In this document: positions 4,415-26,127 of the stretch, one piece after another
How positions within the stretch are numbered: the stretch's first letter is position 1
Layout of the letters: each line of letters opens with the position of its first letter
From: a virus
Lineage: Duplodnaviria > Caudoviricetes
Virus record (IMG/VR): IMGVR_UViG_3300035512_000144
Span: 1-64,000 of that record
Reading direction: 5' to 3' (one strand)
DNA: 64,000 bases
Notes under the pieces: generated by a model
What the model saw: the letters and a program-made list of their open reading frames with translations, nothing else
Databases searched by the model: none
What the model was told of the DNA's origin: nothing
Position numbers and translations under genes: made by a program

Positions 4415-5163
4415 TATGCACCTCACCTCCCCATTGTTCAGCCATAGCCTGTGCAATCCCTTGAAATGTTTTACTCCGATATTTTGCACTTTTTTCTTTT
4501 CTAATCACCTCTCCACTGGCTGCTTGCTTTTTCCAAATTTCAGAATTACCGCAAATGTACCCCCCCTATCGGTTTCACAACATTCGTAGGCACAAGAGGT
4601 TTAAGCCCTTTAAGCCATAAATACGTTTTCTTTGTGTATGGGTGTCCGTATTCATACGGTTGAATTATTTGCGTCTTTTTAGGCAGCCTATAAATAGCAG
4701 ACGGCACTGGGTTTTCTACAGCTATTTTTCCACAATCGGCATTTATAAATTTTAAGAAAAATTCTTTAGCATCAAGTCCTTTTTCAAGCCTTTCGCGTTC
4801 AAGATATGTTTTTCCGTCAAATATCTTGTACAGTCTGCAAGCACCTGCATTTGAAAGATATGTACAAGGCGGGTGTGCAATAATCAAATCCCACTTTCCG
4901 TCAATTCTATGTTCTAATCCGTCTACTGTCTGAAAAGTACAATCACCATTCAATAATGGCAATACATCTGTCTGTATATGCCATTCTTCGTGACCTCCAC
5001 TACAAGGTTCAATGTCACAAGAATATGCTTCATGCCCTAATTTTCTAAATTCTGTGCAAACTCTTTGACTTTCCTCGCAAGCAACTAATACTTTCATTGC
5101 AGACAGATTTTCTTTAGATTTTTCATTTTCCAAACAGTCAAAGATGCTTAACTGCACATTCAT
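4404..5163 (-). pseudogene. C5 cytosine DNA methyltransferase frameshifted in a G7 tract
   Basis: VLVACEESQ, IAHPPCTY and AVENP motifs. The typical C-terminus RSKTFQGIAQAMAEQWG lies in another frame after G7 at 4560-4566. Confidence 0.85.
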
Positions 5164-5300
5164 GTTGCACCGCCTCCCTTTCTCTTGGCTCAAAATCACT
5201 GTTCTAATGCGCCTATTTTGTCCAAATTCGCGTTTTAAACTATTCAGCCTATAAATATGCCATAACGTATTAAAAATCGAAATTTGAGCGTTTTAACGTG

Positions 5301-5501
5301 TCAACAATCAACGCTCTGTTTTACTTTCCAACCAAAACTCTGATTGTAGCCGTTGTCCTTTAGCAGACTGCGTATCTCTTTAATGCGCTTTCCTAATTCC
5401 CTCTGCGACATTCCCGGAAGGATCACTATCGGGATGCCGTCCTCAATCGCCACGGTGTAACCATGACTTTTCAGAAGTTCAACCACATGTTCTTTTTTCA
5501 T
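5301..5501 (-). CDS. Hypothetical protein
   Basis: 66-aa ORF with GAGGTG RBS. Confidence 0.5.
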   Translation of the reverse strand: MKKEHVVELLKSHGYTVAIEDGIPIVILPGMSQRELGKRIKEIRSLLKDNGYNQSFGWKVKQSVDC

Positions 5502-16944: not shown

Positions 16945-18867
16945 CTACTCCACCTCCTTAACAATCAATTCCTTGTCATTCGTCCTGCGAATCATTATCA
17001 CCTGTCTGTCAGTTTCGGGTATCTTGTCCAAATCAATACTTTCAGTGTCCTCAATAATGATTGGCAGATTCACGCCGTAAGCATTTTGGAAACCTAAGCA
17101 GATATCAATCTCCGCAAGAATGCGGTTGCCGTGATTCAGATTTCTGTAATAACTCTCGCCGTCAATCTTAGGTTCACATACAAGGTTTGTGTTGCCATTG
17201 ATAAGAGTCTCAAATAGGTCAAACTGTATGTACTGGAAAGCACCGTTAATATCCTGTTCAAGCAGCTTGTTTTTAGTCTTTTCAAATTCCGATAAGTAGT
17301 AAAGTATCTGCTCCTGGTCTGCAATCTCCTGCGCAATCTTGCGCTGTTCCGTTTGTAATTCCGCGATCCGTTCATCAATCGCCGTGTTGTTTTCAGATTT
17401 TGCAATCTGCTTTTCAACCGTACTTAACTGTTCGCGGATAGATTCTTCCTCTGACTGCAATTTCTCTCGGATTTCAGAAAATGAATTGCTTTCCTGCAAA
17501 AACTTTTCTTTATCGGCAATCTGCCGATTCAGTTCCGCGATATCTGCACGGTCTGAAAGGTCTACTGACTGCGGAAGTGCTGCTAATTGATTTTCAAGGT
17601 CTGCAATAGCTGTATTAAGCATTTCAAGGCTTTTCTTATGTTCTGCAAGTTCCAGTTCAAGTGTTCTCGATTTTTCTTGTTCAACCTCAATCTCAGATTT
17701 CAGACGCTTTCCTTTTTCTTCAATGGTTTTCAATTCTTCTGCCTTGTGGCTTTCAAATTCTGCCCTTAATTCGTCTTGTTTCTCTTTTGGGTATTCTTGT
17801 CCACAATACGAACAAACAAGGCTGTTTTCGTCAAATTCAAGTCTCTGTGTCTCTTTGTACTTTCCACGTAAATTTGAAATGTTTACTCGGTAACTTTCAA
17901 TTTTGAAAATTGAATTTGAAATGTCATTTTCCGTATCTGAAATTATGTCCTGCGTCTGTTGCAAAAGAAATTTCTTGTTACCAATTAAGCGTTCTATTTC
18001 CTGTCTTGCTTTGATATTTTCCTCATTCGCCTGTCGCACCAAATCGTTGACCTTGAATTTCAGTTCCAGTATTCCGTCACTTGCCTTGTCGATTTCCGCA
18101 AGCTGCGCAGATAAATCGTCCTGCTTTGACTTGACCTCTGCAAGTTGTTCTTTCAGTGCGTTTCGCGCAAGTTCCAATTCTGCAACGTCAATTTCCTCGC
18201 GTTTTTCTTCGTTTTCTTTGATTGCTCCAACGATTTCATTTAATCTTTGCTCATATCCGACAACGTTTCTTGTCTTACTGCCGTGAATTTTGTCATTACA
18301 CGTTTGTTTTATCTGCGCAACTGTTCCAAATTCTAATTCTGACCTTATAGGCTCAAATTCTGGAAACATATCAACAATTTCAGCGTTCTTTCTATTTCCA
18401 AAAACCTTTTCAATCAAATCTCTGCGTTTGGCAGCATCTAATTTGAAAAACGTCTGCGGATTCACGCATGATTCATTTGGAAACATATTTTTTAAATGTT
18501 CCGCATATTCTTTTGGTTTTTGAACAATTCCATTGATATAGCAGCTTGTGACATAACCCTGTGGCTCATTCTTTCGGTTGTATGCCATTCCGTAGGATTT
18601 CTTTAACATAACTCCGTTATCAAGTTCCAGTTCAACTTCTGTTGGCACGTTATCGTCAATAATGTCTTTTCCGTCCTTGTCATGCGGGCGTATGCCTGTG
18701 ATTTCCTTGCCGTTCTCGTCTTTCAGATTAAAAATCCAGTAGATAGCACGCTTTATGGTGCTTTTACCTGTCTCGTTGTGTCCTGCGATTTCTGTCCTAT
18801 CAAACAGGTCTGTTTCCAGTGACCGGTGCTTGCAGAAATTTGTCAGCCTTATGTGTTTGATTTTCAT
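16945..18867 (-). CDS. SMC/Rad50-like AAA ATPase with a long coiled coil
   Basis: GHNETGKST Walker A; central CSYCGQ hook; IIIEDTESID Walker B. Confidence 0.85.
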   Translation of the reverse strand: MKIKHIRLTNFCKHRSLETDLFDRTEIAGHNETGKSTIKRAIYWIFNLKDENGKEITGIRPHDKDGKDIIDDNVPTEVELELDNGVMLKKSYGMAYNRKNEPQGYVTSCYINGIVQKPKEYAEHLKNMFPNESCVNPQTFFKLDAAKRRDLIEKVFGNRKNAEIVDMFPEFEPIRSELEFGTVAQIKQTCNDKIHGSKTRNVVGYEQRLNEIVGAIKENEEKREEIDVAELELARNALKEQLAEVKSKQDDLSAQLAEIDKASDGILELKFKVNDLVRQANEENIKARQEIERLIGNKKFLLQQTQDIISDTENDISNSIFKIESYRVNISNLRGKYKETQRLEFDENSLVCSYCGQEYPKEKQDELRAEFESHKAEELKTIEEKGKRLKSEIEVEQEKSRTLELELAEHKKSLEMLNTAIADLENQLAALPQSVDLSDRADIAELNRQIADKEKFLQESNSFSEIREKLQSEEESIREQLSTVEKQIAKSENNTAIDERIAELQTEQRKIAQEIADQEQILYYLSEFEKTKNKLLEQDINGAFQYIQFDLFETLINGNTNLVCEPKIDGESYYRNLNHGNRILAEIDICLGFQNAYGVNLPIIIEDTESIDLDKIPETDRQVIMIRRTNDKELIVKEVE

Positions 18868-19133
18868 TGACTTTCTCCCTCCTTTTCAATCTCACTCCTA
18901 AACCGCGCATCTAACATAGAAAACAATAATGCGTGCGCTGTTTGGAACATCACATGATTCAGTTCCTTGTCCTGAATGGCGAACATCATGGTAGCCGCCT
19001 GTAAAAATAACGCGCTGTCACCCTTGTTGCGGTTCTGCTTTCTGTCCATCATATAAAGGTCATATATCGGACTGTCTTTGATTCTCTGTGCAAAATCTTC
19101 CATGTTTGTGTTCATTGACTTTTCTCCTTTCAA
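18864..19133 (-). CDS. Hypothetical protein
   Basis: Coupled ORF. Confidence 0.45.
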   Translation of the reverse strand: MKGEKSMNTNMEDFAQRIKDSPIYDLYMMDRKQNRNKGDSALFLQAATMMFAIQDKELNHVMFQTAHALLFSMLDARFRSEIEKEGESQ

Positions 19134-19163
19134 CTTGGACGGTCATTCGCCCCATAAAATCAT

Positions 19164-20261
19164 TTATTCAGTTTTCAACAGGTTTACAGCTCGTTTGATT
19201 TCCTCTTCCGTAATGAGTGCTGACTGGAAGCGTATAAGTTTCTGACCATCGTTTGACTTAAAAAGCCCATCTCCGTTTCCTCTAAGTGTTTCAGCCCCAT
19301 TTGAGCCAAGAATCATCCGACTGTTAAGCTTATCTACCGTTGCAAATCCGGCGCGGCATTGGAAGTTGCTTTTCAGCATTCCAGATATCACTTCCGCTTC
19401 AGGTCTTTGCGTTGATAAGATAACGTGGATTCCGCTTGCCCTTGCCTTTGCCGTAAGTCTTGATACATCATCCACAACCTTGTCTCCCTCCGATAAAATA
19501 AGGTCTGCCATTTCCTCAATATAGACCACGATCCGCGGTAGCTTGCCTTTTACGCTTGCGTTATATGAAGCAATATCTCGGCACTTATTCTTTGCAAATA
19601 ATTCATATCGCAAGTCCATTTCCTCACACAGAATTTCAAGCTTTTTCCGCGCCGTCTTACTTTCCGTGATAATACTGGAAACTTGCGGAACACCCTTATA
19701 AAATCCAAATTCAACCGTTTTCGGGTCTATCAGAATCAGCTTCAAATCTTCCTTTGAGTATTGAAGTAAAAGCGATAACACGATATTGTGTGCAAATACC
19801 GACTTTCCGCTACCAGTTTGACCACCGATAAGAAAATGTGGCATAGTCGCAAGGTCATATGTTATTCCGCTACCGTCTAATGCTTCTCCGATTGATATAA
19901 ACAATCCTTCCTTGTAGTTTTCAATCTTATTTAATTCCTCAATACAATCTGCAAATCCGTATGTTCCGCGTTCATTGTTTGGGACTTCAATGCACACATA
20001 CTTTCCGTCCTGCGCAATCCTGCAACCATTCGTATTAAATATGGAATTAAACTCACGAACCTTTCCGAGAAGAAATTTGATATAGTGCGGTTTAACTTCC
20101 ACGTCATATCTTGTTGCAGCCGTTCCGCAATAGATTCCTTTTACATCCGCGTCAATGAACAACTGACTTTGGAATATCCGTTCCAAATCTTCCTTGTTCA
20201 TGACCGTTTCTTCATGCTTAACCGAATGATTAAAGCAATCTAAAAATTTACTGTCTATCAT
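19164..20261 (-). CDS. Soluble FtsK/SpoIIIE-like ATPase (alpha-beta motor only; no TM or gamma domain)
   Basis: PHFLIGGQTGSGKS, LIDPK, VVYIEEMADL, STQRP, AETLRGNGDGL. Confidence 0.9.
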   Translation of the reverse strand: MIDSKFLDCFNHSVKHEETVMNKEDLERIFQSQLFIDADVKGIYCGTAATRYDVEVKPHYIKFLLGKVREFNSIFNTNGCRIAQDGKYVCIEVPNNERGTYGFADCIEELNKIENYKEGLFISIGEALDGSGITYDLATMPHFLIGGQTGSGKSVFAHNIVLSLLLQYSKEDLKLILIDPKTVEFGFYKGVPQVSSIITESKTARKKLEILCEEMDLRYELFAKNKCRDIASYNASVKGKLPRIVVYIEEMADLILSEGDKVVDDVSRLTAKARASGIHVILSTQRPEAEVISGMLKSNFQCRAGFATVDKLNSRMILGSNGAETLRGNGDGLFKSNDGQKLIRFQSALITEEEIKRAVNLLKTE

Positions 20262-20601
20262 TCTGATTTTCTCCTATCTGATATTTATTCATATCTAAAT
20301 ATGCTTCACGAGCATTTCTGTATAAGTCACCACGTTCCTGCTTAATGAATTGCAGAATCAACATATCCGATTCCCATACAGAATTATTGGGATTTTTGTT
20401 GTCACAATACTCCATCAACTTTTCATCCAATTTTGTTATGTCTATTCTGACCGAACCGCTTATTCTGTATAAAGCCCCTGCATCATTTGCCAGTTCTGAT
20501 ATAACCTTTTTGGACAACTTATATCTGATTTCGCAATCATCAAGTGTCGCAAATTTTACTATGCTATTGTCTTTTGGCTTAAATCTTCGTTTTGCTTTCA
20601 T
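20248..20601 (-). CDS. Excisionase-like winged HTH protein (DUF6462-like)
   Basis: CEIRYKLSKKVISELANDAGALYRISGSVRIDITKL. Start at 20601 (or 20610) follows AAGGA. The stop overlaps the FtsK start by 14 nt. Confidence 0.6.
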   Translation of the reverse strand: MKAKRRFKPKDNSIVKFATLDDCEIRYKLSKKVISELANDAGALYRISGSVRIDITKLDEKLMEYCDNKNPNNSVWESDMLILQFIKQERGDLYRNAREAYLDMNKYQIGENQNDRQ

Positions 20602-20639
20602 GTCAAACATCCTTAATATTGGTGTGCTTGTGTCGGCGC

Positions 20640-20934
20640 TTTCGATTACCTTGATAATCCGTATGGGTATCGTACAATGGTGGAATGAAGATTGCAGACA
20701 TTGTCGCTCGATATCCTTTATAAATCTTAATGGTCTCATACACACAGAAAAACCACTATGCACCTACTTCGATACCCTTATCATTTCGTATAGGTGTCTA
20801 CCTCTGTATGGTATCTGGCACAATGCAAATACCGTTCGATACCCTTGTGAAATCGTATGGGTCTCATCCACTTTTGTTTTGAACAATACAATATTCTAGT
20901 TCGATACCCTTGTGAAATCGTATGGGTCTCATCC
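20640..20934 (-). CRISPR. Mini CRISPR-like array A: 5 repeats, 4 spacers
   Basis: 36-nt GTTCGATACCCTTGTGAAATCGTATGGGTCTCATCC (+ strand) exact at 20834 and 20899. Degenerate copies (26-27/36) at 20640, 20706 and 20767. Spacers 30/25/31/29 nt. Confidence 0.85.
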
Positions 20935-21074
20935 CTCAAGAAACATCTGTTCTGTTTTTATACCCTTACTTAACAAGGTATATGCGTAGACGGTTTCTAT
21001 CAGCCATATAGACTAATCACTAGACGTTTTCCGCATAAGTTTTGAGTTTTACCTCTTAGGACAATCGTTTGCCC
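20935..21074 (-). ncRNA. tracrRNA/omegaRNA-like scaffold A
   Basis: Homologous to 22675-22811; 5' hairpin GGGCAA-ACGA-TTGTCC; anti-repeat-like segments; starts about 10 nt after the effector stop. Confidence 0.7.
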
Positions 21075-21084
21075 TTCTTCAATT

Positions 21085-22464
21085 TTATTTCAGCGCAAGA
21101 TACATCTCTCTTGCGTATCTCTGCCTATAATCATTTTCCGACCTGTCGATATCTTTTATTTTCAGCTTTACCACAGTACCGCTATCAGCAGATGCTAACT
21201 TTGTTTCTATCAGCGTTACCAACATAGCAGGAGCATTATGACCGACTGAATATCCTGCTTTGCTTTTCTTTTCATTTTCATTCTCAGTCTCTTTCTTCCG
21301 CATTGCCGCCGCTTGAAAGGGATAATCGTTGACCATAATCATATTTCCATGAGACAAAATCTCATTTGCGATCGCGATTCTTTCCAGTTTTCGATTTTCG
21401 GCTTGTACCCGGTGCAAATCTCGCAACTCTGCAACCGCCTTGTGATATCCGTTTGAAAAATTCCATTTCAGCCGATAACGATTACCGTCAAAATAAATGC
21501 CTTTCTTACAAGTGCCATCCTCGTTGAAATTTTCGGGATTCATAGCGCGTCTTGAATTGTCAAGGTACTGTTGTAAGGCTTTTATTTTCGTGTCATAGTA
21601 AATGTCTGTATCTGTATCTTCAAGGCTTATATCCGTAAAGGTTTCACCGTCTGACGTGTAGACCACATGAGACGTATCAATATACATTCCAACCTTGCCT
21701 TTATTGATAGGATTCTTTTCGTTGCCGTCCTTGTCATACTTGGTGACAGGTGCTTTATCAATCGTTATCTGAACGTACCATTTCAATGTTCCACGGACTT
21801 CTTTATTGATAATGCGCACCTGTTTATATGATTCCAAATCAAGCATTTCCAGTTTGTAATAGTCTTTCGGGTCTAACTTCAACGGCATTTTGATTGTCTT
21901 GCCATGTGCCGTACTGTAAACGCAATACAGTTTCCTGCCGTTTGCGTTCCCTCTGACCTTTTCCCAATCATCATCAACAATGCGTATTCCGCTTTTACCC
22001 TGTGAAACCATGGAATACCATTCGCCTTTACGCTTAAACTTTATCTGTCTGCCACTTCCGAAAAAGTAATCATCAAATGCCGCCCACATAGCAGGTGCAA
22101 TCGTGTTTCCTGCGACCTCACTCGGAATATTCATATTGAAATGTTTATAGAAACTCGTTGTGTCTCCGACAAATCCCATCTTGGAAAATCTGTACTCTTT
22201 CATAAGGTCATTCTTCGTCTGACACGCCGCCTTGAAATCAGCGTCTTTCTTTCTCTCCGCAGGCTCCATGTTTTTGTACGCATTAGCGATAACTTCCTTC
22301 GCTTGCTTGTATTCGGGTCTACGTTCCATTTCCCTAAGTTTCTTCAACTCATATCCCAACATGGAATTGTAAATTTGTCGGCAAATCTCAAACCGCTTTA
22401 CAAGTGCGTCTGACTGCCATTTCTCTGTTTTTAGTGGGATTGTGACTACACTCATTGCTCCCAT
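21085..22464 (-). CDS. Nuclease-dead TnpB/Cas12f-like RNA-guided DNA-binding protein
   Basis: Clostridial TnpB-family motifs: TIPLKTEKWQ..RQIYN, LDNSRRAMNPENFNEDGT.KKG, GYSVGHNAPAML. RuvC sites read GMYID, VNDY and REMY. No Zn finger. Confidence 0.85.
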   Translation of the reverse strand: MGAMSVVTIPLKTEKWQSDALVKRFEICRQIYNSMLGYELKKLREMERRPEYKQAKEVIANAYKNMEPAERKKDADFKAACQTKNDLMKEYRFSKMGFVGDTTSFYKHFNMNIPSEVAGNTIAPAMWAAFDDYFFGSGRQIKFKRKGEWYSMVSQGKSGIRIVDDDWEKVRGNANGRKLYCVYSTAHGKTIKMPLKLDPKDYYKLEMLDLESYKQVRIINKEVRGTLKWYVQITIDKAPVTKYDKDGNEKNPINKGKVGMYIDTSHVVYTSDGETFTDISLEDTDTDIYYDTKIKALQQYLDNSRRAMNPENFNEDGTCKKGIYFDGNRYRLKWNFSNGYHKAVAELRDLHRVQAENRKLERIAIANEILSHGNMIMVNDYPFQAAAMRKKETENENEKKSKAGYSVGHNAPAMLVTLIETKLASADSGTVVKLKIKDIDRSENDYRQRYAREMYLALK

Positions 22465-22506
22465 TGTTTTCTCCTTCTTTCATTTACTATCCGAGACGTG
22501 GATGTG

Positions 22507-22674
22507 GCTCGATATCCTTACAAAATAAGATACCTCTCGTACTCCGTCTACAAGCTTATAACATAACTGATAGTTCGATACCCTTGTCAAAAGATATCTT
22601 TCTCGTACAATGGTATGCCATAAATCCGAGTGATACCGGTTCGATACACTTGTGAAAATCTATACCTCTCGCAC
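22507..22674 (-). CRISPR. Mini CRISPR-like array B: 3 repeats, 2 spacers
   Basis: 36-nt repeats at 22507, 22573 and 22639 (period 66) share G(T/C)TCGATA..CTT with array A; both spacers are 30 nt. Confidence 0.75.
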
Positions 22675-22811
22675 CTCAAAGCACGTCTGTTCGATTTCGA
22701 GATATCCAGTTTACAAGGTGCTAGGTAGACGGCTTCTTCCATGCGTATAGCATAGACACTGACCGTTTTCCCATTGCGTTTTGCATTTCTGCTTCGGTCA
22801 ATCGTTTGACC
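22675..22811 (-). ncRNA. tracrRNA/omegaRNA-like scaffold B
   Basis: Collinear blocks shared with scaffold A: CTCAA, TCTGTTC, ACAAGGT, GTAGACGG, CGTTTTCC, GTTTTG, CAATCGTTTG. Perfect hairpin GGTCAA-ACGA-TTGACC. Confidence 0.7.
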
Positions 22812-22819
22812 GCTATAAT

Positions 22820-23143
22820 CTATTTATCCTTAATCCTCTCCAACTGCCTGCGAACCTTGTAATCTTTCGCCTGCTCGACCATGTCCTCACAGTTCAAAAG
22901 TACTTTCATTTGCGCAAGCATGACCTCTACGTCTGCGATTTCTTCAACCATGTTGTTGAAACAAGCACTCTTTTCAAACTCGTTGGTTTTCCGAATGCCG
23001 TAAAATTCAACGACTCCGCAACCTAATTCCTTTCTCCAAAACTTGTTGACAGCCTGCGTCAGCTCCGCCATTTCTTCAATGAGCTGTCTGCTCTGCGCGT
23101 CATAGCCGTAATGCCTTGCAATATGCTCAATTGCCTTACTCAT
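22820..23143 (-). CDS. MazG-like nucleotide pyrophosphohydrolase
   Basis: LIEEMAELTQAVNK ... EEIADVEVML. Confidence 0.75.
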   Translation of the reverse strand: MSKAIEHIARHYGYDAQSRQLIEEMAELTQAVNKFWRKELGCGVVEFYGIRKTNEFEKSACFNNMVEEIADVEVMLAQMKVLLNCEDMVEQAKDYKVRRQLERIKDK

Positions 23144-23321
23144 TATTTTTGTCACCTCTCCTGCTCTTGATGTAGTCGCAAGTGTCAAATATGCTCATTA
23201 CAAGCCAATACACACAGGCAAACGCCCATGCACACTTGGCTGTCGTGCCATCTAATACCGCCACATTCATAGCACTCAAAATCGCGATTGCATAACCGCC
23301 AATAATCTTCACTACTTCCAT
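23136..23321 (-). CDS. Small two-TM membrane protein
   Basis: Two hydrophobic stretches; coupled on both sides. Confidence 0.5.
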   Translation of the reverse strand: MEVVKIIGGYAIAILSAMNVAVLDGTTAKCAWAFACVYWLVMSIFDTCDYIKSRRGDKNNE

Positions 23322-23929
23322 TACCCTGTTTCCTCCAATTCTTCCAAAATTCCTACCGACATTTCATAAGCTGTTCGCGTTTCAGACACTCCGTTGTCCA
23401 GTGCTTTCAGATACTCCCTTGACTGCATTCTCCCAAATGTTGTCAGTTGATATCCCACTGGACATTCTGATATGTACCTCGCGTTCCTGCCCCATGCGAT
23501 ACACGGTATATAATCACTTCTGTTGTATTTCCTCCGCACAGCTAACAGAAAATCGCAAATTTCTCTTCCGCTAGGGGATAGTCTGTATACTGGTTGAGTT
23601 ACAATGCGACCGCGCAACATTGACTGGTTTTCCAAATACAGAACATTTACCGTCTCAATACATTGTGCGAAAATGTAAACTTTCAAATGCCTGTCTGCAT
23701 CTCTCCATGTGCGTATTTCCCCAGTAACAACTACATAATCGCCGCGCGATGCTTGCGCTCTTAACCGCTCTGATACAATCACACAGACTGTGTCAATCGC
23801 TCCGCTGCTGCGCATTGATTCAACGTAAAAGCTGTAAAAATTCTCGCCGCGGTTCGTGTCGTACAATTCCATGCCGGATATGGTTTCACCGCCAAACACT
23901 ATATGGTTGTTATCGCTCATGCCCCTCAT
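23321..23929 (-). CDS. ssb: Single-stranded DNA-binding protein (double OB fold)
   Basis: R.SGAIDTV..I; GEIRT; YRLSP.GREICDFLLAV.R.YNRSDYIPCIAWGRNA; GRMQSREY. Confidence 0.85.
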   Translation of the reverse strand: MRGMSDNNHIVFGGETISGMELYDTNRGENFYSFYVESMRSSGAIDTVCVIVSERLRAQASRGDYVVVTGEIRTWRDADRHLKVYIFAQCIETVNVLYLENQSMLRGRIVTQPVYRLSPSGREICDFLLAVRRKYNRSDYIPCIAWGRNARYISECPVGYQLTTFGRMQSREYLKALDNGVSETRTAYEMSVGILEELEETG

Positions 23930-24360
23930 TCACCTCTCCAACGATTTTTCCATCGTTAATCTCAAATGACATTCCGAGATTGTAGTGAATAACCTCTAAA
24001 TCCTCCAGTGACATCTTGTTAAAATCTGTAATAATCATTTCCTTTTCTCCCTCCTAAACTTGTCTAACATCTTGGTTTTTCCAGTTTATTTGTTGATAAC
24101 TTTCAAATAAAACTCTGTTTCTTCAATCAGCATCCAGTCATTAGCTTTCAGACTGTACGCTGATAAGCATTCTTTCTGACTCCTGGTCAGTCTCTTTGTC
24201 TGTTTCATCACTTCTTACCGCTTGAAATGATTATTGCAATGATTACCAACACAACAACCAGTAACATCACAGCGAAAATCGCCGCGGCAAATCCCGCCCA
24301 AAACGCATTCACATACACATCAATCACCTTCCTCTCTCACAATGTCCTTTACTCCGTCAA

Positions 24361-24792
24361 TCACCCTTTCGCGTCCACGTACTGCACAAAGCATCTGCCG
24401 CCTGTCAGTTTCATCCACTCGACACATTCCTCATATGTCGGAAAATATATGTCAATGCACTTGCCGGATTCGATACTCCCGATGCCGTCACCGTCAGCAT
24501 CACCTCCAAATCCAGTATCAAGACATTCAAAAATCCCTAACAGTTCGCCGATTTCTCCGTCATTATTCGCATAGACAAGTGCCGTCATGCCTAGCTTGTC
24601 CTGTGCCACCGCGCATATGCCTTTTCTGACCGCTGTGCCTGTTGCCGTAGTCGTTCCTTGGCAATAGGCTATCGTGTGCATCTTGATTACTTCCGGCTCC
24701 TGTTCCTCCGCATATGATGTGCTGGTGCATATAATAAGAAGAAACAAGACTAATGCTCCGGCGATTTTACAAGTTAATCTATGCGTTTTCAT
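24361..24792 (-). CDS. Secreted 3D-domain protein
   Basis: Signal-like N-terminus; TIAYC..TTTATG..GICAV; ECLDTG; CIDIYF. Confidence 0.65.
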   Translation of the reverse strand: MKTHRLTCKIAGALVLFLLIICTSTSYAEEQEPEVIKMHTIAYCQGTTTATGTAVRKGICAVAQDKLGMTALVYANNDGEIGELLGIFECLDTGFGGDADGDGIGSIESGKCIDIYFPTYEECVEWMKLTGGRCFVQYVDAKG

Positions 24793-25505
24793 GTCTCGCT
24801 CCTTTGCAACAGCTTCCTAATTCCATCAACGCCCTTTTGGTAGACAAGCGTTTTAATGCTGATACATTCCTCGCCGTTCCTCTGATAGTGCTGTTCGATT
24901 ACGTTAAACCAACCATTGTCAACGTACTTCTGATACGGCTGATTCCTTGTGTCAAGCACCTTGGCATTTCGCAGGAACTCAAACAAGTGGTTGCGACCAT
25001 ATCCTTTTATACCCAGTGCCTTTGCGACTTCCTGCATGGAAATTGCGTCCTTACTTCCGGCTACTGCGTCAAAAAATTCTGCCTTTGGATGCATTTCCTT
25101 GTTTTCAAGTGTCAGTCTTTCATTGTCCTCTACCGTTACAAGAAGTTGTTGCAGTGCCTCCTTGTATGTCTGTGGCAAGTGGTAGCCGCCTATCTTGCGG
25201 ATAGACGGTAGAACTTCGCTTGTTACCCAATGCTTAAACTTCTTTGCATTCGGCAATTTGCTACCGAGAACCAATCCATATAGCCCCGATTCGTTTATCA
25301 GCAACGTGTTTCTGTTTTGCGTTCCGTCAAACAATGGAACAATACGCCTGTCCTCTTCATCGGTATGCCGTTCAATATCTCGACTACCGTTTTGGTACTC
25401 CAGCTTTTCTGTTATGTCTTTGCCAATAAACCAAACGTCATTGTCAATCGTTACTGTTCGTATTTCTCCAAACTCTTCATTACTGAATATCTGTAATTCG
25501 TGCAT
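24789..25505 (-). CDS. Phage antirepressor (Bro-N + ANT/KilA-C)
   Basis: FGEIRTV..WFIGKD; INESGLY..SKLP.AKKFKHWVTSEVLPSIRK.G; PKAEFFDAV; GRNHLFEFLR. Confidence 0.92.
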   Translation of the reverse strand: MHELQIFSNEEFGEIRTVTIDNDVWFIGKDITEKLEYQNGSRDIERHTDEEDRRIVPLFDGTQNRNTLLINESGLYGLVLGSKLPNAKKFKHWVTSEVLPSIRKIGGYHLPQTYKEALQQLLVTVEDNERLTLENKEMHPKAEFFDAVAGSKDAISMQEVAKALGIKGYGRNHLFEFLRNAKVLDTRNQPYQKYVDNGWFNVIEQHYQRNGEECISIKTLVYQKGVDGIRKLLQRSET

Positions 25506-25692
25506 GACCTATCTCCTTCTAAAAAATGTGATATAATCTCCATATCAAAAATGATAGGAGGTGATTTTTTGGCAAAATGCCCTTTAAACAATTTCAAAGA
25601 ATGCTTTGGAAGTGAATGCGAATTGTATGTTACTCGTACTGGATGCTGTTCTTTTACACTGACCGCCAAATCGTGTGAAAATCTTGAGAACA

Positions 25693-26127
25693 TTAGCCTA
25701 TGTCTCGAACATCTAAAATGTTCGCATACGCATTCGACAAATGGCACATAGTTTCGGAATATTCAGTCAAGCCGGATTTCCAACCATTACCGTTATCTTT
25801 GGCATTCCTGCTTTCCTCTGCCAATAGCTGAATCTGTTGGTAGAGGATTTTCAAAACGCTGTCTGTTTGATTCTCTTTGCTACAATCTGTGCAAACTGGT
25901 TTCTCTTCTTCTACATCATCTAACAAATCAGATTTTTTTATTTTGAAGTAATCAGCCAGTCTCTGCATTCTCCAAACACTAGGAATACTGTTGCCGTTGC
26001 ACCACATATTCAATGTTGTTTTCTCAATGCCTAAATCTCGCGCAACATCAATCTGACGCTTGCCGTTAAGCGACATATATTTGTTAAGGTTCTTTGCAAA
26101 AATCTGTTTCTGTTTATCGCCGTCCAT
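25693..26127 (-). CDS. XRE-family HTH regulator
   Basis: RQIDVARDLGIEKTTLNMWCNGNSIP..LADYF. Confidence 0.8.
   Translation of the reverse strand: MDGDKQKQIFAKNLNKYMSLNGKRQIDVARDLGIEKTTLNMWCNGNSIPSVWRMQRLADYFKIKKSDLLDDVEEEKPVCTDCSKENQTDSVLKILYQQIQLLAEESRNAKDNGNGWKSGLTEYSETMCHLSNAYANILDVRDIG

Follow-up and report, generated by a model that had tools for sequence, protein, structure and literature searches.

Two paralogous structured RNAs, probable guide scaffolds, flank the gene of a predicted nuclease-dead TnpB/Cas12-like protein in a phage genome

The locus and its relatives

The window, the whole stretch of DNA that was analysed, comprises positions 1 to 64,000 of the virus record IMGVR_UViG_3300035512_000144 of IMG/VR, a 73.9-kb contig that is rated complete. 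In the early region of this phage, surrounded by small genes on the same strand, lies a locus whose parts are all carried by the minus strand and follow each other in the order scaffold B, array B, a 459-aa ORF, scaffold A and array A. It is situated between a region that is of the RecT type in relatives and an FtsK-like gene. Neither a Cas1 gene nor a Y1 transposase gene was found in the 73.9-kb record.

Upstream of the gene, scaffold B (22675..22812, minus strand) is a structured RNA of about 138 nt, matched by a covariance model at 159 bits and continuous with repeat B1. This is the first of the three 36-nt repeats of array B (22507..22674, minus strand, 66-nt period) and carries private changes. 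The last spacer of array B adjoins the ribosome-binding site of the protein gene (21085..22464, minus strand), the product of which has a TnpB/Cas12 fold and has lost the RuvC triad. Scaffold A (20935..21075, minus strand; about 141 nt, 183 bits) starts 9 nt past the stop codon and is continuous with repeat A1 of array A (20640..20934, minus strand). This array has five 36-nt repeats at a period of 61-67 nt; repeats 1 and 2 are identical, and the three distal copies are degenerate, differing at 9-11 of 36 positions. Each scaffold runs without a gap into the first repeat of its own array, like a natural single guide, as the earlier note on this DNA had recognized.

A remnant of a third scaffold, consisting of the P1 hairpin only (19137..19153, minus strand), is indicated by a weak covariance-model match of 27 bits together with alignment to the related loci L081 and L082. 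The sequence directly after the FtsK-like gene, ATGATTTTATGGGGCGAATGACCGTCC (19137-19165, minus strand), corresponds to the beginning of a scaffold, P1 hairpin included, of which L081 (3809-3992) and L082 (2577-2766) have intact versions. In the window phage, the remainder has been replaced by a ribosome-binding site and a small ORF.

A search for homologues of the protein yielded 161 sequences of about 460 aa, most of which derive from Firmicutes of the rumen and gut, and related loci were collected from IMG/VR as well as from metagenomes and assemblies. Searching with nhmmer gave 18 scaffold units in close relatives, and a covariance model built from 17 units retrieved 40 units at E values up to 1e-5, 39 of them on the strand of the gene. 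Units lie directly upstream and downstream of the gene in about 15 loci, some of which have a third, and the two-cassette layout is therefore a family trait.

A protein without the RuvC triad

The sequence of the 459-aa protein marks it as nuclease-dead and as related to TnpB/Cas12-like proteins that have an intact nuclease and are linked to CRISPR arrays. The NCBIfam model guided_TnpB matches it weakly (E 1.4e-9, under the curated cut-off), and searches of PDB chains with the protein sequence and with a profile returned nothing meaningful. An AF2 model (pLDDT 85.7) gave Foldseek matches to Cas12m2, TnpB, Cas12f, dCas12f, Cas12p and LaTranC at 9-13% identity, the top match being 8hhl (Cas12m; E 2e-12, identity 12%). 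A protein of TnpB/RuvC fold with arrays on both sides of its gene is what would be expected of a type V effector.

The D-E-D triad of RuvC is lost at all three positions. The first D is replaced by Y in the window and by Y or F in its clade, with a conserved D two residues later; the catalytic E is replaced by N, which is invariant in 24 aligned dead-clade sequences; and the segment with the third D is absent, about 90 C-terminal residues being missing in the window's clade. The triad is complete in the relatives L001 and L006, where its residues lie in the motifs GIDIG, VEDM/IEDM and QRDLYSAF.

These two belong, with L009 and L016, to Oscillospiraceae/Clostridia genomes in which relatives of 505-515 aa are accompanied by CRISPR arrays of 3-10 repeats at about 4680-5350. 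The L001 and L006 proteins keep the RuvC triad and lack the usual CxxC zinc finger, and a weak match to the scaffold model (24-28 bits) lies between the gene and the true CRISPR arrays.

Sequence and fold of the scaffold RNAs

Scaffolds A and B are homologous and collinear, with 121 of 204 alignment columns invariant. The motifs on which the earlier note had built its model are present on the plus strand, namely ACAAGGTAT (20973-20981) and CCATA (21004-21008) in scaffold A, and ACAAGGTG (22713-22720) and GTATAG (22745-22750) in scaffold B. The 5' hairpin is perfect in scaffold B (GGTCAATCGTTTGACC, 22796-22811), and its counterpart in scaffold A (21059-21074) reaches full pairing on the minus strand only, by way of one G-U pair, which supports the minus orientation. 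An Rfam scan of 18000-26000 at E values up to 1 found no family.

Five helices were defined in the scaffold with RNAalifold and a manual structure string: P1 is the 5' hairpin, P2 a small hairpin, and P3-P5 form a three-tier stem capped by a conserved UAUAU loop. Two further helices involve the repeat, one being a closing helix between CCUUGU of the scaffold and ACAAGG of the repeat, and the other a small hairpin within the 5' half of the repeat. A covariation check on homologous loci, as the earlier note had suggested, showed that this fold is conserved, with compensatory cells well above shuffles. Among 17 close units aligned with MAFFT, 88.2% of cells are paired (69.9% in shuffles, 33-45% in slid controls) and 124 are compensatory, compared with 41 in shuffles. 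The values for all 40 units are 89.2% paired (60.8% shuffled, 35-44% slid) and 389 compensatory cells (118 shuffled), in an alignment that was fitted to the covariance model and is thus biased towards its structure. P5 is 92-94% paired and has compensatory changes at 7 of 7 pairs. The minimum free energy (MFE) fold of scaffold B alone gives P1-P5 and the closing helix (z -2.4), and that of scaffold A alone gives the same structure, anti-repeat helix included.

Several further elements can be seen in and around the scaffolds. A TATA-rich element (GATTATAG, TATATA or AATATGAT) precedes P1 by 0-3 nt in the majority of the 40 units, for instance at 22813-22824 in the window, within 12 nt upstream of P1. 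As a -10 box it would be too close for the whole of P1 to be transcribed. A promoter and terminator scan gave promoter counts no higher than in shuffles, with no promoter standing out. Some units contain an insert of about 35 nt that separates the anti-repeat from repeat 1; in the window it is found at 20943-20972 (minus strand) and in the corresponding part of scaffold B. It resembles a degenerate, buried repeat, since it ends in CGAAC as the repeat does and includes AAGGGUAU in its scaffold A copy. The insert is absent from the units of L082, L203, L207 and L127, and the centroid fold of scaffold A shows it in competition with repeat 1 for pairing to the anti-repeat. Lastly, a pseudoknot may be present family-wide, formed between UUUGA, directly before the repeat hairpin, and the UCRAA of the repeat's 3' end, beside the guide. 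In the window, the candidate helix joins 20899-20907 to 20935-20945 (minus strand) and would span the anti-repeat helix; it is 90.6% paired, but its invariant sequence gives covariation nothing to work on.

One repeat:anti-repeat helix is conserved

Two repeat:anti-repeat duplexes per scaffold had been proposed, of which the first is borne out by compensatory changes across the family and the second is not conserved. The first anti-repeat, with its core CCUUGU:ACAAGG and an inner extension, is real. It was recovered without prior assumption by a scan of all column pairs, and it is present in the MFE folds of both window scaffolds. In scaffold A it is the RNA AUACCUUGUUAAGU (20968..20981, minus strand), the duplex of which with UUUCACAAGGGUAU in the repeat has an energy of -8.6 to -9.0 kcal/mol; in scaffold B it is GCACCUUGUAAAC (22709..22721, minus strand), pairing with ACAAG of the repeats. 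Across 40 units, 86% of the helix is paired. Anchored pair tables show the pair types UA/CG/AU/UG at inner position 1 and AU/UA/GC/GU at inner position 2, and examples are CCUUGC:GCAAGG in the upstream unit of L201, GUGAAAU:AUUUCAC in L207 and UUGAGA:UCUCAA in L133 and L126. Cognate duplexes of 29 units average -9.2 kcal/mol versus -7.5 kcal/mol for non-cognate ones, and none of 20,000 permutations reached the cognate mean. Because the core is invariant in the MAFFT columns, column-wise covariation is modest, with 36-60 of 500 shuffles reaching the observed value. The helix is short, and its second inner position is mismatched in both window scaffolds.

Within the window alone, the short matches described earlier are present but carry no weight, as they are at chance level: dinucleotide-shuffled scaffolds have 3.1-4.4 complementary matches of at least 5 nt to the repeat, and 57-70% of them have a 6-mer match. 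RNAduplex energies of the whole scaffold against the whole repeat were uninformative, huge internal loops being allowed, and were set aside.

The second duplex is unsupported, being unconserved, out of register and in overlap with two covarying local hairpins. Its scaffold side is the loop and 3' arm of P5, which in scaffold A (20998..21018, minus strand, loop UAUAU) includes CCATA and in scaffold B (22738..22757, minus strand, loop UAUAC) includes GTATAG, the motifs that had been read as second anti-repeats. Its repeat side is the 3' arm of the repeat's own covarying hairpin. In the register of scaffold A, 63.5% of cells are paired, compared with up to 58.8% in a slid control, and the few double changes come largely from three near-identical units of L127; in that of scaffold B the value is 47%, compared with up to 55%. 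The two matches had also been placed at the same positions in A and B, which holds for the first but not for the second, where columns 80-84 pair with 185-189 in A and columns 77-82 with 185-190 in B, a register shift of two columns.

Arrays, spacers and targets

The mini-arrays of the phages are far shorter than the array of L026, a dead-clade member in a rumen Bacillota MAG, which has about 14 repeats of 36 nt (4506-5432); the scaffold covariance model detected no scaffold at L026. Near-identical scaffolds of L082, L203 and L207 carry unrelated spacers, and this, together with the L026 array, speaks for real spacer turnover. Possible targets were sought widely. In the phage's own 73.9-kb genome the spacers gave self matches only, and in the fetched loci 16-17-nt matches at chance level plus one homologous flank common to L082 and L203. 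Spacers of arrays A, B and L026 had only chance-level matches in GenBank phages, exact 20-mers of spacers A1, A2 and B1 had none in IMG/VR, and the host MAG of L026 and the 58-kb record of L081 held nothing convincing. As no protospacer was found for any spacer, we only infer that DNA is targeted.

Interpretation and rival explanations

The explanation that we favour, with good though not full confidence, is that the nuclease-dead TnpB/Cas12-like protein is served by the two elements on either side of its gene, as a pair of paralogous guide-RNA scaffolds of a tracrRNA-like or omegaRNA-like kind. Once transcribed, the anti-repeat CCUUGU(N)AAA would pair with (U)UUNACAAGG of the 3' repeat half, and the 5' half would fold into its own small hairpin. 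Since the scaffold is fused to repeat 1, the first unit would form a natural single-guide RNA in which ...AUCGAAC precedes the guide on its 5' side. For the later repeat-spacer units, processing from the array and pairing with a scaffold in trans would presumably be needed. The anti-repeat core is nearly the same in A and B, so both cassettes most likely load the same protein interchangeably. The loaded complex would bind matching DNA without cleavage and could thereby silence its target.

The earlier note had instead envisaged one protein using two orthogonal RNA sets, with two anti-repeats per scaffold, each serving its own array only. Some observations are in keeping with this. Within the clade of the window, units upstream of the gene (window B, L201, L081, L202 and L206) group together with 99/92 support, apart from the downstream units, so that the lineages have been separate for some time; L201 shows a reciprocal preference for cognate partners (-12.7 vs -10.0 and -14.0 vs -10.7 kcal/mol), and the third unit of L081 is fairly exclusive. 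The window itself speaks against it, as neither scaffold favours its own repeats. Repeat A1 pairs at -9.0 kcal/mol with anti-repeat A and at -9.3 with anti-repeat B, repeat B1 at -7.4 and -7.0, and repeat B2 at -12.0 and -9.6, respectively. Scaffold B therefore pairs better with repeat A than with B1, and repeat B2 prefers scaffold A. The claimed covariation of each anti-repeat with its own array was not found either: no compensatory change distinguishes A from B, and nothing offsets the change from G to U in repeat B1. The motifs CACTTGT and CTATAC, given as typical of repeat B, do occur in B1 but are private to it, and B2 has CCCTTGT like array A. In other subclades the two units of a locus group together by locus and are nearly identical in most, so A/B divergence is not required for the system and orthogonality is not a family trait. 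With the second duplex unconserved, shifted in register and competing with two covarying hairpins, we regard two orthogonal sets as very unlikely. A related reading, in which selection has preserved the upstream cassette and the downstream one as guide modules of separate function, is itself doubtful, if somewhat less so. The timing of expression could then differ, with array B forming part of the 5' leader and cassette A following the gene; alternatively, the diverged repeat hairpins, GGAUGAGACC and GUACGAGAGGUAU, could be distinguished by the protein or by a processing enzyme.

Other readings concern the role of the units rather than their pairing. It is conceivable, yet improbable, that guide function is confined to the first, cis-fused unit of each cassette, which would act as a fixed single guide in the manner of an omegaRNA, with the further repeats being decaying duplicates that have no use in trans. 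Two cassettes of L081 do have a single repeat, the distal repeats of window array A have decayed to the extent given above, the anti-repeat helix is short for annealing in trans, and single guides are used by dCas12f and TldR (PMC13472631; 10.1101/2023.11.30.569447). Such decay is at odds, however, with the 3-4 identical repeats with unrelated spacers in the upstream unit of L081, in L203, in L205 and in the third unit of L082, as it is with the long L026 array and with the different spacers behind near-identical scaffolds. Least probable of all, and hardly credible in our opinion, is that the structures, rather than being guide scaffolds, regulate the gene and arrays in cis or serve as their leaders, for example as terminators, attenuators or array leaders. 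The start of scaffold A so close to the stop codon and the position of array B within the 5' untranslated region of the gene could be taken in this way. On the other hand, three terminator-like sites were found, in a number not above that in shuffles, and none is inside scaffold A or B; a five-helix fold of about 140 nt with conserved loops and complementarity to the repeat goes far beyond the needs of a leader; and in nuclease-intact relatives the weak match to the same model precedes CRISPR arrays.

Comparison with known systems

Guide-RNA scaffolds of the kind proposed here can be compared with those of several known systems. Like the tracrRNA:crRNA pairs and engineered sgRNAs of type V-F (Cas12f), they would serve a miniature TnpB-derived effector through a long structured scaffold with an anti-repeat, repeats of 36 nt and a guide 3' of the repeat, and Cas12f is among the top fold matches. 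However, one repeat:anti-repeat helix is supported here and Cas12f has two, the scaffold is naturally fused to repeat 1 and present in two or three copies per locus, and the effector has neither a RuvC triad nor a sequence-level match to any solved chain. The omegaRNA (reRNA) of TnpB, as in ISDra2 and ISFba1, is similar in that the scaffold begins at the 3' end of the gene and the RNA terminates in the guide; TnpB is also among the top fold matches, in addition to the weak guided_TnpB match. The present locus differs in having a repeat-spacer array after the scaffold and a second scaffold upstream of the gene, and, with no Y1 transposase in the record, there is no IS200/IS605 TnpA context. Cas12m (type V-M) provides the best Foldseek match and binds DNA without cleaving it, but is a protein of about 600 aa with only 12% identity to that of the window. 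Cas12m uses a crRNA and is not known to require a tracrRNA.

TranC and the V-U* candidates are compact TnpB-like effectors from gut Clostridia with repeats of 32-38 nt, short arrays and no adaptation genes (10.64898/2026.03.27.714800; PMC10691335); the Cas1/Cas2 adaptation module is also absent from many type V subtypes (PMC10691335). The nuclease-intact L001 and L006 look alike to these, a likeness drawn from descriptions, whereas the window's clade is nuclease-dead and phage-borne. For V-U24, again compared by description, a non-canonical RuvC-I site and an HTH neighbour are reported, both of which are also seen here. Among nuclease-dead systems, some dCas12f loci have several tandem gRNAs and one cluster lies near CRISPR arrays (PMC13472631), and TldRs are single-guide repressors, the fliC-associated ones being prophage-borne (10.1101/2023.11.30.569447). 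A C-terminal truncation that removes part of the RuvC site is shared with both, and RNA-guided DNA binding would be expected in all cases. The present proteins nevertheless form a different lineage without a sigma-E, fliC or oppF partner gene, and they have a true repeat-spacer array behind each scaffold, with cassettes on both sides of the gene. Our literature search found no description of cassettes that flank an effector gene with each scaffold fused to a mini-array.

Significance

The claim of two orthogonal guide sets, tempting but unsupported, has been removed from the model and would otherwise misdirect engineering. Should the cassettes prove to be separate modules after all, a phage would carry a DNA-binding effector with two or three separately controlled guide channels. 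What is gained is a tested secondary-structure model for the probable guide RNA of a hitherto unstudied family of over 150 phage-borne, nuclease-dead, TnpB-derived proteins from rumen and gut Firmicutes. The family also provides a natural example of a tracr-like scaffold that is continuous with the first CRISPR repeat and occurs in duplicate, on either side of the effector gene. This two-cassette layout is intermediate between the omegaRNA, dual-RNA and single-guide states that are discussed for the origin of type V systems.
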